Below are positions 50,729 through 57,432 of a stretch of 64,000 nt of DNA, piece by piece (the first letter of the stretch is position 1; every line of letters starts with the position of its first letter). The translations under genes were made by a program, and so were the position numbers. The notes below the pieces were generated by a model, which made no database searches, was not told where the DNA came from, and worked only from the letters and a program-made list of their open reading frames with translations. The stretch is from a candidate division WOR-3 bacterium. Its GTDB lineage: Bacteria; Hydrothermota; Tepidihabitantia; Tepidihabitantales; Tepidihabitantaceae. Location of the stretch: NCBI GenBank assembly GCA_965648905.1, contig CBFGIT010000014.1:1-64000 (forward strand). Direction: 5' to 3'.

Positions 50729-51247
50729 TTATGTCTTGCGGATGAAGCGGGGCCGGCTCGGTCTGAGCGGCAGTGTGAGTCGGTGGCTGAGCACAGTCAT
50801 GCCGGCGCGGCAGAAGAACGCCCGCGCCACCAGGTCGAAGTCGTAGACCGAGGCCTGAATCTCGTCCGCGCCGCGCGCCTGGGCCCATTCTCTCACTTCG
50901 GCCAGGAGCCTTGTGCCGATTCCCTGGCGGCGGTGCGTGCGCCGAACCACAATGCCCCGGATGATAATTGACCTCAAGGGTTTCTTCTGCGGATAGTCGG
51001 GCATTTCCCTGAGTCCTGCGTTGACAATGCCGATTACACGGCGGCCCAGTTCGGCAACTGCCAGGAACGTGTTCGGGTCGCGCATCAGCTCTTCGGTTCG
51101 GTCGCGGCGCCGAACTCGGCCCTGGGGCTTGCGGAACCGGTCGGGCAGATTCTCTCTGAACAGGCGGTCCATCTGCTCGGCAAGCGCGCAGATGGCGTCG
51201 AAGTCAGCCGGAACTGCAGGGCGGATGACGATACGGCGAGTCTTCAT
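50729..51247 (-). CDS. GNAT family N-acetyltransferase
   Basis: IRPA...D, V...HRRQGIGTRLL; ATGA overlap with upstream gene. Confidence 0.88.
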   Translation of the reverse strand: MKTRRIVIRPAVPADFDAICALAEQMDRLFRENLPDRFRKPQGRVRRRDRTEELMRDPNTFLAVAELGRRVIGIVNAGLREMPDYPQKKPLRSIIIRGIVVRRTHRRQGIGTRLLAEVREWAQARGADEIQASVYDFDLVARAFFCRAGMTVLSHRLTLPLRPSRPRFIRKT

Positions 51248-52014
51248 CGTTCTTCTCGATGGCCGCAGGCCGGTTCTTCACCACCGAGTGTCCGGACGGT
51301 TCTTTGGATGGTTGCAAGACACAGGCCCGGCGTTCGGACAATCTCACGGCCGGAAAAGCGCAGCACATGCCAGCCTCCGGACACGAGCCGGTTGTCGCGG
51401 GTGCGGTCGACCTCGGCTCTTGCTGGGCCGGTATGGTACAGCTCGCCGTCACATTCGACGTCAATGTTACCGTCCCGGCAGAACAGGGCCAGGTCGAGCA
51501 TGTTGCCCGGGCCATAGTCGCGGACAAAGTACTGCCGTTCAGGAGAGAGGCCGGAGCGCTTCAACCGGGAGTAGAGTCGGTCCTCAATCGGGCTGTCGCA
51601 GAACAGGTCGTTGATTTCCTGCGCGCGCTTCAGGCGCTCCAGGGTCGTCGGGATGAAGACAATCCGGCGCAGGCGCAGGCTGGGAATCGGGTGGGGCAAG
51701 CGTTCCAGTCTGTCAATCGCCAGTCGCCAGTACTCATCAAGAGCCCGCGGGTGGCCGGGTTCGTCGGGCAGGAGGTCGATGCGTCTTGCTCTGGTGATGC
51801 GCCGCACTCGGGCCAGGTAGTTGACCGCCCATTTTTCGGCGCCGAAGGCCGCGGTCTGGTAGAACGCAAGCCAGCGAAACCGCTCGATCCGGTCCGGTGC
51901 AGTTCGGGCCGGAATCCGGTACCAGTGTTCGTCTTGGAGCCGGTTCCAGTCTGTCCGGCGCGTGACTACGGCGACGAGCGCGGGTGTGCTTCTGGTTACG
52001 CGCCGGCGTAGCAT
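51244..52014 (-). CDS. DUF559/Vsr-like endonuclease with an N-terminal accessory domain
   Basis: SPIEDRL, ERQY, LDLAL, VECDGELYH, DRTRDNRL..GWHVLRF. Confidence 0.82.
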   Translation of the reverse strand: MLRRRVTRSTPALVAVVTRRTDWNRLQDEHWYRIPARTAPDRIERFRWLAFYQTAAFGAEKWAVNYLARVRRITRARRIDLLPDEPGHPRALDEYWRLAIDRLERLPHPIPSLRLRRIVFIPTTLERLKRAQEINDLFCDSPIEDRLYSRLKRSGLSPERQYFVRDYGPGNMLDLALFCRDGNIDVECDGELYHTGPARAEVDRTRDNRLVSGGWHVLRFSGREIVRTPGLCLATIQRTVRTLGGEEPACGHREER

Positions 52015-52127: not shown

Positions 52128-54050
52128 CTAACGGGTAAGAACGAGTTTGACTTCAGACTGTTGGTCGCCTGAGCCGACACGGCAGAAGTAGATGCCCGGA
52201 CTGACCAACTGGCCGAGCTGGTCGCGTCCATCCCAGGACGAGCCGGTCAGGGTGCGCACGTGGCGGCCGCTGTTGTCGAAGATGGAGAGGAGAGGGGTTG
52301 AGGTTTCAGGGAGTCGAGGGCTCAGGTCGAAGCGGACTGCAGTGGAGAACGGGTTGGGCCAGGCGCGGACTGCGGCCCGAACCACCGTTGCCGGCGTTTC
52401 GGCGATACCGCTGCTCGGGTCAGCAGTCGTGTACTTGATGGCCCGGCCGGGCACAAGCTGAGCCATGCCCCGATGATAGCTGCCGTCAAACAGACACTGG
52501 ATGGCTACGGTCATGCTCGGGTCCTGGATGCCGATGGTGCTGCTGGTGTAGTTGTTTGCCGTCAGGTACTGTACGAGCAGGACATTGTCGCCGGTCGGCG
52601 AATGGATCGTTGTGTCGTAGATGACGAGCTCGAACTTGTCCCATTGGTCGCGTGCACCGTAGTAGTGGACGCTGTCGTACTCGATGACGAAGCGGTGATT
52701 GGCCGGGTCGTGGTAGTACCAGACGCTGTTGCCGTAGGGCGGATACAGGTCGTCCCAGTTGAGACAGACCACAGCCGGCAGGCTGGTTGTCGGCAGGGCG
52801 GTGTTGGTGTAGGAAACATTGGTCGTATAGCCGGGTGCGACCCAGCCATTGCCGCAGATGGAAACCTGGCTGTAGGTCTGGCCGTAGTAGTTCCAGACAA
52901 ACCCTGGCGGCAGGTCGACCTGTACGGTCTGGTCGTCAGACAGAGTCAGTCTGGTGCCGATGTCCCGGATTTCGACCCAGGAGAACTCAGGATGCTGAGC
53001 ATACTGGATATCAACGTCGTCGTATGCCCAGTAGCGTGCGGGTTGACGCGGGCCGTCTGGAATCGGGTCGATGGCACGGAGTTCACCGACAACTACCGTG
53101 AGGTTGAGCGTGTCAACGTAGTTGCTGCCGGTAAGAAACAGTGTCAGCGGTATCGGAGTCTCAGGCTGAATCGAGGAGCTGACCTGGGCAACGTAGGCAT
53201 CGCCCTGAGCGCTGCTGCCAGGTGCGATATTGCCGTAGGCAGAAGTCGAGTCGGTCAGGACAAACCGGGCGTCACCGGAACGAAGCAGCCCGGTAACGCT
53301 GTTTGCTGCCTCATTTCCGACGTTGCGGACGGTGACAAGCAGTTCTCCGGTCTCGCCCGGGTCGAATCGGCCGTTGCCGTTGCCGCCGGGCGGCGGGTCA
53401 TTAACCGTGCGCGTGCCGAGCACGCAGTACGGGCCACTGGCATGGCTGACAAGAGTGACGTCGTCGGCGAAGACCTTCGCCCACGGCGTCCCTCAACCGC
53501 TGTAAGTGTAGCTGAAAAGCGCGACTTCAACCCGGGCAACGTCGTCCGGGTTGACGCCCTGGAGATTCTGGCTGAGTTCCTCGGCGATATTCAGGGTGTA
53601 CTCGTTCCATGAGGGGTCGGTGATTCGGCGCAGACTGAGCACGCCGGTAGGAACCCAGTTGGCATAGGTGGAGTAGTAGTAGCGGGTTTCGCCTAGGACT
53701 GCGTCGGTGTTGTCGAGGTAGCGGACCGTGAAGCAGGCGGCAGGCCAGCACGTTGACGAGCCGCCTCCCTCTTCGAAGCTGGCCCAGAATGACAGTTCGA
53801 GCAGTACACCCGGTACGTCAACGGTCTGGCTGAGGCGCGCCCAGCCCGGGTTGTCGTACTGGTAGGTCTGGGCCTCATAGTCCGGGTCAGGATGATAGCC
53901 CGGATCGCGGCTGGCGGTGTGCGTGCCGTAGCCGCTGTCGGTATAAATCCAGCCGACGGTCAGTTCCTGTTCGAAGTCACCGTTGGTGAGCAGGTTCTGG
54001 CCGGAACTGACCGCCAGAACCAGGAGCGGAATGAACAAGAGCTTTTTCAC
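52128..54050 (-). CDS. Candidate secreted selenoprotein, 640 aa with in-frame UGA at codon 186; CBM-like N-terminal domain and T9SS/FlgD-type C-terminal domain
   Basis: The two listed ORFs share one frame, joined by 23 open codons (...SYTYSG-UGA-GTPWAKVFADDVTLVSHASGPYCVLGT...); SD, GTG start and signal peptide only upstream; sorting domain only downstream; SECIS-like hairpin after UGA. Confidence 0.72.
53457..53492 (-). promoter_or_regulatory. Candidate bacterial SECIS element
   Basis: UGA + 11 nt + GGCGA-AGGUCU-UCGCC stem-loop, extended by GACG.CGU / ACG.CGUC lower pairing. Confidence 0.7.
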
Positions 54051-54200
54051 AAGACCTCCTTAGCAGGTCAGGTATATTCTCGCGGCCCGGAGCTTGTTGT
54101 CAAGCTGAGAAGTGAGCCTGCGTGCTCGAGGGGCGAGCGTGAGTTGACGCGGTCCCCTGAGCCGGAGGAACACACGACGGCCTGATGCGAGCGACTGAGG

Positions 54201-54761
54201 CTATCTGACGTGGCAGCTTCCGCCGCCGTGCCTGGCGAAGTACTTCTGATGGTACTCCTCGGCGGGCCAGAAGGTCCTGGCAGGTACAATCTCCGTGACC
54301 ACCGGCCGCTTGAGCCTGCCGGACTGGTCGAGCTTCTGCTTGGAGGCGAGCGCCGCGGCCTGCTGTTCAGGTGTGTGATAGAATATCGCGGACCGGTACT
54401 GGGACCCGATATCGGGACCCTGGCGGTTCTTCGTCGTCGGGTCGTGCATGTTCCAGAACACGGTGAGCAACTGGTCGTAGCTCACAACCGCTGGATCGAA
54501 GACAATCTGGACCGCTTCAGCATGGCCGGTCTTGTCGGTGCAGACCTGTTGGTAGGTCGGGTTGTCGGTGTGGCCGCCGGTGTAACCGACAGTGGTCGAG
54601 ACAAGGCCTTTGACCTGGTCGAACGCGGCCTGAACTCCCCAGAAACACCCGGCCGCGAACGTTGCGGTTTCAGTCCTGTTCACAAGTTCCTCCTTGGGTA
54701 TTCCCGCATCGGCGGACAGGCCCGACACGAGCAACATCAGCATCCATGCGGTCTTGAGCAT
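54201..54761 (-). CDS. msrA: Peptide-methionine (S)-S-oxide reductase MsrA with a signal peptide
   Basis: [37 protein letters not shown]. Confidence 0.95.
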
Positions 54762-55206: not shown

Positions 55207-57432
55207 ATGCGGAGATTCACTATTGTTCTGTTCTGTATCTGTGCCATCGGCTTTGCCCAGCCCGAGTCATGGGACAAGGTGATGATGGCGCCCGCGGTCA
55301 TGCCCATGGACATGTGCTTTCTCGCTGACGGCCAGCACGGCTGGTTTGTCGGCTCGGCCAGCGCAGGCGGGGAGGTTCTTACGGTCGTCATGGTCACACT
55401 AGACCGGGGAGAGACTTGGCGCAAGCTGCCGTTTCCGGACTCAAGCAGCACCAGTCTTGGGGGTGTGTTCTTCGTGTCGCCTGAGCGCGGCTGGGTCGTG
55501 GGCAGTTCAGGCTACATCAGTCGTACCACCGACGGCGGCATGACGTGGACGAGGCAGACCAGTCCGGCGAGCCGCAAGCTCAGCCGCGTCCACTTCGTCA
55601 GTGACCAGATCGGCTGGATTACCGGCGGCTGGAATGACGGTAGCCAGTATCTTGTGCTCAAGACCACGAACGGAGGCACGACATGGCAGAACCTGAGCTT
55701 TGGCTCGGACTGCTACTCGTGCGAGGATATCTGGTTCGCGGATACGCTGAACGGCTGGCTTGTCGGCCAGAGCAGTTCTATCAACCCCTTCATCCAGCAC
55801 ACGACCGACGGCGGCACGACGTGGAGCCTTCAGAGTGCACCGATTCCTTCGGGCAATGGGCCAGTTTCGTCGGTCTGTTTCCCGACGCCAAGCATCGGTT
55901 GGGCCGTGGTTTCGAGTATCTATCAGTCGCCGTCCGGCACGATTCTGCACACGACTGACGGCGGGACGACCTGGGGTGCGCAGGGCTCGACCGGGCTGCA
56001 CTACAACTATGCCCTTGACGCACCGGATACGCTGCACGTGGCGATTCTTTCGACCCAGGTGCTGGGCAATGCGACGGGCCGTCTGGTTGTCACCACGAAC
56101 GGCGGCCAGAGTTGGTCAAGCTACAGCCTGCCGACTTACAGCTACGGTTACGGATGCCAGTACCGGGGTAGCGACATCTGGGTGGCGCAGGACAATAGCC
56201 AGGTAGTGCACAGCTCGAACAGTGGCATGAGTCTGGACTGGCAGTTCTACGCACCGATGTGGCAGTCAGCAGGCTGGAGCTCGGCCCAGGACGGTTGGCT
56301 GGTGGCCGGTTCTTCGAGCGGGCCGGGGTACTGCTATCGGACGACTGATGGCGGGACAAGCTGGTCCCGTGACCGAAACGCTCCGGGCGGGGTGCAGGTG
56401 CAGTTTGTCGACTCAGACCACGGCTGGATGCTTCGAGAAGGCAACAGCGCCAGGGTCTGCAGGACCACTGATGGCGGGCAGAACTGGGCCGAGTTCAGCG
56501 TCGGCACCAGTTCCTGGGTCGGCCGGATGTTCTTCGCCAGCGAGGATTCGGGTTGGGCCTGCGGCAGCCAGGGCACGATGCGCGTGACCACGAACGGCGG
56601 TGCAACCTGGACGGCCCAGAACCTGAATACCTCGAACTACTGCGAAGACGTGTTCATGTTCAACTCGAAGACGGGCTGGGCTGCCGGCGGGTATGGCAGC
56701 GGCAACGGCTTCATTCGGTTCACCACTGATGGCGGGGCGAACTGGCAGACTCAGAATCCGGGTGGTAGCGCACACGTCAATCGGCTGTTCTTTCTGGATG
56801 CGCAACTCGGCTGGGCCGGGTGCTATGGCGGCGAGGTCCAGAGGACGACCGACGGCGGCGCGACGTGGAGCATTGTCGGCTCAGTGCCGCACTTCTACCT
56901 GGAGGCTCTGGTCTTCACTGATGCCCAGACTGGGTGGCTGGCCGCAGGCAACGCGGGCGGGAGTCAGCCAGGCGAGGATGGCCGAGGCTTCATATACAAG
57001 ACCACCAATGGCGGCATCACCTGGCAGCAGGAGTACGCCGCACCGTGGCCGCGCGGCTGGGTACAGGATATCAGTCGCCAGCCCGGCGGCCTGCTCTGGG
57101 CCTGCGGCAACCATTCAGGCCTGCTCAAGACTATGCCGCCGCAGGCAGTCGAGGAGCATCCCAGGTCAGCATCGGACGAACTGCGCCTGCGAGCGTGGCC
57201 GAGCCTTGGCAACGTGCCGGTGCAACTTGAGTTCGCATTGCCGCGCGCCGGGTCGGCGCGGCTGGCGGTCTATGATGCGGCCGGGCAACTTGTGACGAAT
57301 CTCGTGCAGGGGTGCATGTCGCAAGGCCAACACTCGGTGGTTTGGGCTCCAGGGGAGGCGGCGTGCGGCGTCTACCTGTGTCGGATTGAGGCACTGGGCC
57401 AGGAGCGCACGGTCAAGGTCTGTCGCCAGTAG
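55207..57432 (+). CDS. Secreted YCF48/BNR-repeat beta-propeller protein with T9SS-type C-terminal domain
   Basis: Many TTDGG.TW repeats with F...GW blades; signal peptide; VYDAAGQ...GVYLCR. Confidence 0.88.
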   Translation: MRRFTIVLFCICAIGFAQPESWDKVMMAPAVMPMDMCFLADGQHGWFVGSASAGGEVLTVVMVTLDRGETWRKLPFPDSSSTSLGGVFFVSPERGWVVGSSGYISRTTDGGMTWTRQTSPASRKLSRVHFVSDQIGWITGGWNDGSQYLVLKTTNGGTTWQNLSFGSDCYSCEDIWFADTLNGWLVGQSSSINPFIQHTTDGGTTWSLQSAPIPSGNGPVSSVCFPTPSIGWAVVSSIYQSPSGTILHTTDGGTTWGAQGSTGLHYNYALDAPDTLHVAILSTQVLGNATGRLVVTTNGGQSWSSYSLPTYSYGYGCQYRGSDIWVAQDNSQVVHSSNSGMSLDWQFYAPMWQSAGWSSAQDGWLVAGSSSGPGYCYRTTDGGTSWSRDRNAPGGVQVQFVDSDHGWMLREGNSARVCRTTDGGQNWAEFSVGTSSWVGRMFFASEDSGWACGSQGTMRVTTNGGATWTAQNLNTSNYCEDVFMFNSKTGWAAGGYGSGNGFIRFTTDGGANWQTQNPGGSAHVNRLFFLDAQLGWAGCYGGEVQRTTDGGATWSIVGSVPHFYLEALVFTDAQTGWLAAGNAGGSQPGEDGRGFIYKTTNGGITWQQEYAAPWPRGWVQDISRQPGGLLWACGNHSGLLKTMPPQAVEEHPRSASDELRLRAWPSLGNVPVQLEFALPRAGSARLAVYDAAGQLVTNLVQGCMSQGQHSVVWAPGEAACGVYLCRIEALGQERTVKVCRQ

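Follow-up and report, generated by a model that had tools for sequence, protein, structure and literature searches.

A stretch of 64,000 nucleotides from a candidate division WOR-3 bacterium (contig CBFGIT010000014.1, positions 1 to 64,000; referred to as the window) carries on its minus strand, at 54050-52128, two open reading frames (ORFs) which very probably constitute one gene for an exported selenoprotein of 640 residues, interrupted only by an in-frame UGA codon that is read as selenocysteine (Sec). The UGA and the hairpin behind it, which resembles a bacterial selenocysteine insertion sequence (SECIS), are retained in a family of homologues, and the genome of the host contains the machinery for Sec insertion. 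The recoding mechanism is the canonical bacterial one; the family itself is uncatalogued and widespread and is unusual in its fold and its location.

The reading frame and its conserved UGA

The ORFs 54050-53493 and 53423-52128 share one frame of the minus strand, and the TGA at 53495-53493 is its sole interruption, as a preliminary description of this DNA had stated. The 23 codons from the TGA to the next possible start, which it considered to read as protein, indeed translate as GTPWAKVFADDVTLVSHASGPYC. Read through, the product comprises 640 residues with Sec at position 186 and ends at the stop codon TAG at 52130-52128. In line with it is also the division of the expression and export signals over the two parts: a Shine-Dalgarno-like sequence and an N-terminus, KKLLFIPLLVLAVSSG, which by eye resembles a signal peptide in its basic residues, hydrophobic core and small-residue end, belong to the upstream part, and the sorting domain of the type IX secretion system (T9SS) is detected in the downstream part only (TIGR04183, 29.8 bits vs a cut-off of 23, residues 564-637). 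The related profile PF18962 reaches 19.9 bits, under its cut-off of 27, and apart from the T9SS sorting domain no Pfam or NCBIfam family matches the window protein. The features of the gene are as follows, all on the minus strand.

54055-54060, minus strand: Shine-Dalgarno-like AGGAGG, 4 nucleotides 5' of the GTG start (by eye)
52128-54050, minus strand: probable selenoprotein gene with GTG start, 640 codons, one in-frame UGA and TAG stop (frame open on both sides of the TGA; the single TGA recurs in homologues)
54000-54050, minus strand: predicted signal peptide, residues 1-17, VKKLLFIPLLVLAVSSG (sequence pattern by eye; similar N-termini in paralogues)
53436-53999, minus strand: N-terminal Sec domain, residues 18-205, predicted beta-sandwich of the carbohydrate-binding module (CBM) type (AlphaFold2 model, fold searches)
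53748-53750, minus strand: Cys101 (TGC), candidate partner of Sec186, within the conserved GGSSTCWP loop (conservation pattern)
53493-53495, minus strand: UGA codon 186, probably read as selenocysteine (same column TGA in homologues)
53482-53492, minus strand: 11-nucleotide spacer between UGA and hairpin (sequence)
53466-53481, minus strand: SECIS-type hairpin GGCGAA-GGUC-UUCGCC, loop at 53475-53472 (conservation, covariation)
52362-53435, minus strand: passenger region, residues 206-563, predicted immunoglobulin (Ig)-like beta-sandwich followed by an all-beta domain without clear structural match (model)
52140-52361, minus strand: T9SS type A C-terminal sorting domain, residues 564-637 (TIGR04183)

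With the first 215 residues as query, tblastn detected six further copies in the host genome, in each of which the aligned column holds an in-frame TGA; an eighth copy (C27) came from a profile search, and the TGA occupies the same loop in all eight. The profile also matched 53 of 61 genomes of close relatives, in which only three matches reach the domain end without a stop (G005:C1:2500109-2500672, G007:C3:201587-202138 and G060:C17:21675-22271). Across the phylum the family is present in 107 of 272 genomes (E <= 1e-10), with exactly one TGA in 150 of 150 among the matches listed, beyond which there are 110 further matches. In loci gathered from relatives, which bear the names candidate division WOR-3, Candidatus Stahlbacteria and candidate division TA06, 91 of 94 gene copies have the TGA in the loop and three have none (counts not deduplicated between collections).

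The same column marks the end of most proteins recorded for this family. Among 1.84 billion cluster representatives a profile matched 304 at E <= 1e-3 (183 at E <= 1e-10); of the best 150 of these 304, 95 terminate precisely at the Sec column, 18 extend across it, four end earlier and 33 are other fragments. A word-index search with the 185-residue stub returned 135 matches at E <= 1e-10; among the matches listed, 120 of 120 are 107-192 residues long and carry the names 'hypothetical protein' or, in UniRef, 'CBM-cenC' and 'DNRLRE domain-containing', and not one of these 120 is named a selenoprotein. The 18 representatives without UGA have Cys at the Sec column in six cases and another residue or a gap in twelve. 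Sec/Cys pairs thus exist as in other selenoprotein families, and the fold is able to manage without the site. The question left by the preliminary description, whether homologues would carry Trp or a variable residue here, is answered by the UGA and the conserved hairpin found at this column.

The host assembly (60 contigs, 3.01 Mb, completeness 99.6%) contains the set of Sec genes for which the preliminary description had suggested to search. The tRNA-Sec scores 72.2 bits vs a gathering score of 47 and has the anticodon UCA according to ARAGORN, selB scores 348 bits over model positions 1-580 and selA 560 bits; these matches and those of selD all exceed the curated cut-offs. There are two selD genes (C8:88040-90884 and C4:87631-88554), each with one in-frame TGA and hence encoding a Sec-containing SelD; one of them directly adjoins selB. 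Neither selD Sec site has the same tetraloop hairpin, which leaves no organism-specific SECIS consensus. A genome-wide scan for an in-frame TGA followed by a hairpin with an NGUN tetraloop yielded 31 candidates, of which seven are copies of the family and the rest are noise-like, and brought up no other selenoprotein.

The occurrence of the family follows that of selA. Of the 272 genomes of the phylum 122 have this gene, among them 101 of the 107 family-positive ones. Tallied per family of genomes, the two traits agree closely; for example, Sec family and selA amount to 0/11 each in f8, 16/16 each in f13 and 0/14 each in f15, and are nearly equal in f14 (23/31 vs 25/31). Among the family-positive genomes lacking a selA match, two (G022 and G203) have a tRNA-Sec, one (G191) has selB, and another (G223) is 74% complete.

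The hairpin behind the UGA and the decoding of codon 186

The TGA of the window is followed by 11 nucleotides (53492-53482) and then by GGCGAA-GGUC-UUCGCC (53481-53466), which forms a stem of 6 base pairs. An 81-nucleotide stretch folds at -34 kcal/mol with z = -2.1, and 7 of 200 shuffled sequences fold as well. In the family the stems mostly comprise 6-7 base pairs. Among 71 distinct TGA-site sequences the loop starts, counted from the U of UGA, after either 20 nucleotides (33-35 sites) or 23 nucleotides (34 sites), that is, in codon steps, and the loop reads GGUC in 64, AGUU in two and GGUU in two of 69 anchored sites; one site with a U-U closing mismatch was mis-anchored and was placed by hand.

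Covariation was scored on an 8-pair helix in an alignment of 70 hairpins, 64 of them distinct. Paired cells amount to 84.4% vs 76.3% after shuffling (0 of 500 shuffles as high) and to 25-57% with the partner column slid, and double-change cells number 47 vs 12.3 expected (0 of 500 shuffles). The signal is carried by the inner four pairs: the first is AU in 56 and GC in six cases, the second AU in 34, GC in 27 and CG, UA and GU in one each, the third (columns 10-19) GC in 56, AU in five, CG in two and UA in one, and the fourth an invariant CG. Since columns 10-19 covary at two synonymous third codon positions, protein-level selection cannot explain this pair. The two outer pairs form in only 21 and 35 of the 64 distinct homologues. 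The preliminary description of this element therefore stands with respect to the 11 nucleotides and the stem-loop, whereas the additional lower-stem pairing exists in the fold of the single sequence and is not conserved.

The hairpin simultaneously encodes W-A-K-V-F-A, the start of the last beta-strand of the domain. Its arms specify residue pairs around an invariant Val, namely K-F (28), E-S (26), R-L (6), W-Y (1) and Q-C (1), all of which are Watson-Crick or wobble solutions of the stem, besides one G-U case (E-F) and one mismatch (V-S). The choice of codons tracks the pairing as well: Val is GUC in 60 of 64 sequences, Arg is always AGG and Ser always UCN. The hairpin is under selection as RNA, and the family offers a case of overlapping codes in which a SECIS stem forces correlated residue pairs upon the last beta-strand of a protein domain.

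The element agrees with known bacterial SECIS structures. A bacterial model has been described with a stem of 6-8 base pairs and a conserved loop G about 20 nucleotides after the UGA (PMC4605307), and a distance of 16-37 nucleotides from UGA to apical loop has been given (PMC10778597); the hairpins of the window and the family fit in stem length and in the position of the loop. The likeness to E. coli fdhF noted in the preliminary description is confirmed by the K-12 record, where the TGA is followed by 11 nucleotides and GGUUGCA-GGUC-UGCACC, the same plan as in the window. The hairpin would be recognised by SelB of the host.

The decoding of UGA by SelB with Sec-tRNA(Sec) is established in bacteria generally. 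In the window gene, SelB with Sec-tRNA(Sec) would decode UGA186, recruited by a minimal SECIS located 11 nucleotides past the UGA and consisting of the 6-bp stem and the GGUC tetraloop inside the coding sequence. The product would be composed, in this order, of a signal peptide, the CBM-type Sec domain, an Ig-like domain, an all-beta domain and the T9SS sorting domain.

Several observations weigh against this interpretation. Taken alone, the hairpin is only mildly unusual and derives its weight from conservation, and an Rfam scan of 53380-53540 gave chance matches only (E 0.5-4.6) and no SECIS family. Six of the 107 family-positive genomes have no selA match, and in two of the family-positive genomes, G186 (96% complete) and G058 (76%), the UGA gene is present and selA, selB and tRNA-Sec were not found. 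The co-occurrence of the family with selA is supportive but does not amount to formal statistics, and the kinship of the genomes overstates its significance. No RNA run holding the gene is among the sequencing runs listed. Moreover, the twelve UGA-less relatives with neither Cys nor Sec at the site indicate that the fold does not need the centre, and the functional part of our proposal, discussed below, is an inference from sequence patterns only.

One alternative regards the UGA as a true stop, which would leave a secreted stub of 185 residues, a separate or unexpressed downstream part and a hairpin with another role, for instance in pausing or mRNA stability. Gene callers annotate the locus in this manner, and the stub lengths of the listed homologues and the 95 representatives ending at the Sec column agree with it. 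However, the stub would be deprived of the closing beta-strand, and the domain attains its pLDDT (predicted local distance difference test) of 97 only in the read-through form, the downstream part begins with 23 codons without a start codon and without a visible ribosome-binding site, and the sorting domain would be cut off from its signal peptide. As, in addition, the family tracks selA and the hairpin fits the plan for SelB binding, we consider a true stop very unlikely.

Still less probable is a read-through in which a changed code or a suppressor tRNA places an ordinary residue such as Trp, Cys or Gly, and not Sec, at this position. The frame would be open under any reassignment of UGA, and the two genomes without detected Sec machinery could be quoted in its favour. 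A reassigned code is, however, excluded because TGA terminates 635 of the 1372 stop-to-stop ORFs that reach 350 codons and is not followed by longer extensions than the other stops, the frame remaining open for at least 100 codons in 19% of cases after TGA, 29% after TAG and 30% after TAA; the preliminary view of UGA as an ordinary stop elsewhere in the window is thereby extended to the whole genome. Furthermore, the host selA and selB genes are free of internal TGA, tRNA-Sec alone among 54 tRNAs has the anticodon UCA, the tRNA-Trp having CCA, and the UGA is confined to one column with a SECIS-type hairpin after it.

A recent nonsense mutation or an assembly error, suggested by a single TGA splitting an otherwise intact gene, is refuted by the comparative data and can practically be dismissed, as the same TGA is found in eight paralogues and 107 genomes, protein conservation continues past it, and a 96%-identical strain shows no change at TGA or hairpin among the differences listed, which are 40 out of 47. 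This strain is represented by a 1436-nucleotide contig of a hot-spring metagenome, which covers 52916-54049 with 43 differences, none of those listed falling within 53404-53594, the region of UGA and hairpin; near-identical DNA is held by metagenome runs labelled as hot spring. Of the other runs, X2 has just small parts and X3 and X4 cover none of it.

Predicted fold and secretion, and genomic surroundings

Residues 17-206 were modelled by AlphaFold2 as a beta-sandwich with a mean pLDDT of 97.0 and a predicted template-modelling score (pTM) of 0.92. The loop joining strands 157-166 and 174-186 carries Sec186 (model residue 170), and Cys101 (model residue 85) is in the loop ahead of strand 87-96; the codons of the last beta-strand of the Sec domain lie past the UGA and are supplied by the SECIS itself. 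Foldseek assigned a probability of 1.0 with E-values of 1.2e-9 to tailspike 4 of phage CBA120 and of 1.8e-8 to CBM61. VIA superpositions, which span model residues 1-190, gave Z 15.4 to 5w6h_A (root-mean-square deviation 2.4 Å over 145 aligned residues), 14.2 to the porphyran-binding CBM 8xmz_A, 13.2 to 5x7o_A, 12.8 to CBM16 and 11.3-11.6 to CBM4-2. The carbohydrate-binding-like environment of Sec186 envisaged in the preliminary description is thus reproduced by model and fold searches.

At the sequence level the relationship is faint. A profile of the Sec domain found 5x7o_A in the PDB at E 2e-4, and PF02018 matches nine of 121 family members weakly (best E 0.0037) and the window protein not at all at E <= 1. 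The motifs at the two ends of the domain, N-G-D-F-E at the start and A-D-D-V-x-L at the finish, we take to resemble those of CBM_4_9 domains. Compared with CBM4/9, CBM11, CBM16, CBM61 and the C-terminal domains of phage tailspikes, the fold is the same and the sequence similarity marginal. The model therefore indicates a CBM-type fold outside the Pfam family CBM_4_9, and by its fold the Sec domain may be called lectin-like or sugar-binding-like.

The passenger and C-terminal region is less well defined (pLDDT 84.5, pTM 0.63) and is modelled as an Ig-like sandwich, an all-beta domain and the sorting domain. For the C-terminal 435 residues Foldseek gave generic Ig-like or beta-sandwich matches only, with TM-scores of at most 0.21, and neither a PDB sequence match nor a Pfam domain besides the sorting domain was found. 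The passenger (residues ~206-560) belongs to a large family of putative surface proteins, at least 11 host paralogues of it occurring without a Sec domain, for example C37:20382-21758, C41:11375-12736 and C18:44545-45927. Other family members join the N-terminal Sec module to other passengers, some with Kelch repeats or a CARDB-like domain, and in the shortest forms (276-282 residues) the module is followed only by a linker and the sorting domain, which makes it a cargo in its own right. More remote homologues of the domain that lack the UGA are located at the C-terminus of proteins of ~400 residues with another N-terminal part (P0135, P0138, P0145 and P0151), so that the module also occurs beyond T9SS cargo.

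In its TIGR04183 sorting domain the window protein is like a T9SS type A cargo, and its N-terminus resembles a signal peptide by eye. TIGR04183 scores over its cut-off in the window protein and in four of six other host copies tested, and the host genome contains two full-length PorU-like genes (357 and 354 bits, under the curated cut-off of 420). According to these features, the protein should be found on or outside the cell surface by way of type IX secretion.

Directly upstream of the selenoprotein gene and on the same strand lies an msrA gene (54201-54761, minus strand) whose product has a signal-peptide-like N-terminus. As a functional partner MsrA was dropped, since L047, a relative of the same genus, retains the adjacency and the other loci do not. 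Further upstream, 55207-57432 on the plus strand encodes a 741-residue protein with BNR/Ycf48-like repeats and a tail which, by eye from the ORF list, resembles a T9SS sorting domain. The downstream neighbours (50729-52014, minus strand), named by eye from their translations, are a DUF559-like protein (51244-52014) and an ORF like GNAT-type acetyltransferases (50729-51247), neither of which shows an evident tie to the selenoprotein.

The proposed Cys-Sec centre and the relation to known selenoproteins

The position of Cys relative to Sec was counted in 82 N-complete family representatives ending at the Sec column. An adjacent C-U without the distal Cys is present in 59, the distal Cys alone in 12, neither in 10 and both in one. 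The adjacent Cys, found in 60 of the 82, is often part of a G-C-U-G or G-C-U-S motif. The window protein reads S-G-U-G, with no Cys adjoining Sec, and its candidate partner is Cys101, which is kept in six of seven host paralogues aligned; the host copy on contig C30 has no distal Cys and reads N-C-U instead. Some members of the type with neither Cys carry U-x-x-C in the loci of relatives, and the distal Cys is present in none of 18 UGA-less relatives. In relatives represented by loci L069, L071, L075 and L084, one subfamily has C-U-S-G-H-C around Sec, reminiscent of a metal site, and another S-G-U-G-G-C.

In this pattern Sec is nearly always accompanied by exactly one Cys whose position shifted during evolution, which fits a two-residue centre composed of Sec as nucleophile and Cys as resolving partner. 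For the window protein it implies that the GSSTCWP loop would adjoin the Sec loop. The preliminary suggestion that Sec186 may pair with a Cys of STCWPAAC receives indirect support from the near-exclusivity of distal and adjacent Cys among the 82 representatives. We give about even odds to the view that Sec186 and its partner Cys constitute a reactive selenolate/thiolate-selenenylsulfide centre on a lectin-like scaffold. In such a centre Sec186 would attack as nucleophile and Cys101, or the adjacent Cys in most family members, would resolve the intermediate; candidate substrates are a peroxide, polysulfide or sulfur, a disulfide or a soft metal.

A more far-reaching scenario, which we advance tentatively and hold to be rather less than evenly likely, is that WOR-3 bacteria display the Cys-Sec centre at their surface on lectin-like modules located at the tip of many T9SS cargo proteins and use it outside the cell for catalysis or covalent capture. 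The targets might then be, for example, polysulfide or sulfur, peroxides, and disulfide-bonded or thiol-bearing polymers, and the protein would represent an extracellular selenoenzyme or 'reactive lectin' without a described counterpart, present in up to nine copies per genome.

Alternatively, Sec and Cys might serve at the surface to bind Hg, Cu, As, Sb or a similar soft metal or metalloid instead of cycling between redox states. This would be in line with the His and Cys residues that some subfamilies add near Sec (C-U-S-G-H-C, U-G-G-C), with the hot-spring label of the metagenome runs holding near-identical DNA, and with C-U motifs in HgcA and the MerB-like SaoL, which handle mercury or organometals according to the table of a 2026 review (PMC13188914). 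On the other hand, only Sec and one Cys are conserved family-wide, without a third ligand, no conserved metal-related gene is located nearby, and an adjacent C-U would be of poor chelate geometry; we regard metal binding as a live but rather unlikely alternative. We regard as more doubtful still a structural staple, in which a selenenylsulfide would outlast disulfides in reducing, sulfidic habitats. In the window protein the partner Cys is in another loop and the bond would tie two loops together, but the prevalence of the adjacent C-U pair makes a purely structural role unlikely: the partner is next to Sec in 60 of the 82 representatives, where a bond would hold no separate parts together, and 12 of the 18 UGA-less relatives have the fold with no Cys at the site.

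The Sec domain has no match in Pfam or NCBIfam, the NCBI selenoprotein models included, and the family is absent from the 87-family selenoprotein catalogue in Table 1 of a 2022 review (PMC9312934), in agreement with the preliminary description, in which the architecture was not recognised. The text of a 2026 review and of the deep-Sep and BSepDB papers (PMC13188914, PMC12013277, PMC13326102) contains no term for secretion, T9SS, CBM or WOR-3, although the supplementary lists or a groundwater-genome study (Cell Rep 2026) could list the family. Literature searches found no selenoprotein reported as type IX secretion cargo, nothing relevant on selenocysteine in WOR-3, and, among the papers listed, none linking selenocysteine with a carbohydrate-binding module; no CBM is known to contain selenocysteine.

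The catalogues present prokaryotic selenoproteins as mostly of thioredoxin fold and redox type, and an exported family of CBM fold would widen the use of selenium; it is also a large one, with 1-9 copies in each of 107 of the 272 genomes of the phylum and 304 clusters at 50% identity. At the same time a systematic annotation error becomes apparent, since databases hold 'hypothetical' stubs of ~185 residues, the C-terminal halves being orphaned. Because the hairpin is nearly the minimal SECIS of fdhF, E. coli may be able to produce the domain with Sec in place, which would make its function testable.

Sec outside the cytoplasm, as proposed for the window protein, is shared with the catalogued exported or envelope selenoproteins, i.e. 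the DUF1573 protein, the MtrB/PioB-type barrel and 'GOS_C' (PMC9312934), and with the multihaem MccSep, whose Sec-Cys pair acts on polysulfide according to its description (bioRxiv 10.1101/2025.11.18.688581). From all four the window protein differs in fold, motif and domain architecture.

With fdhF the window gene has in common the in-frame UGA, the 11-nucleotide spacer and a short G+C-rich stem with a GGUC loop within the coding sequence. Unlike the fdhF SECIS, the window stem is without a bulged U, and unlike the cytoplasmic molybdoenzyme encoded by fdhF, the host protein is predicted to be an exported beta-sandwich. With respect to the Sec centre, the nearest parallel is mammalian thioredoxin reductase, which has a C-terminal Gly-Cys-Sec-Gly with a selenenylsulfide between the neighbours. 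As in this GCUG motif, Cys directly precedes Sec in most family members; fold, location and organism are different, there is no flavin partner, and the window protein itself has G-U-G and a distal Cys. The likeness thus concerns how the centre may work and not family membership.

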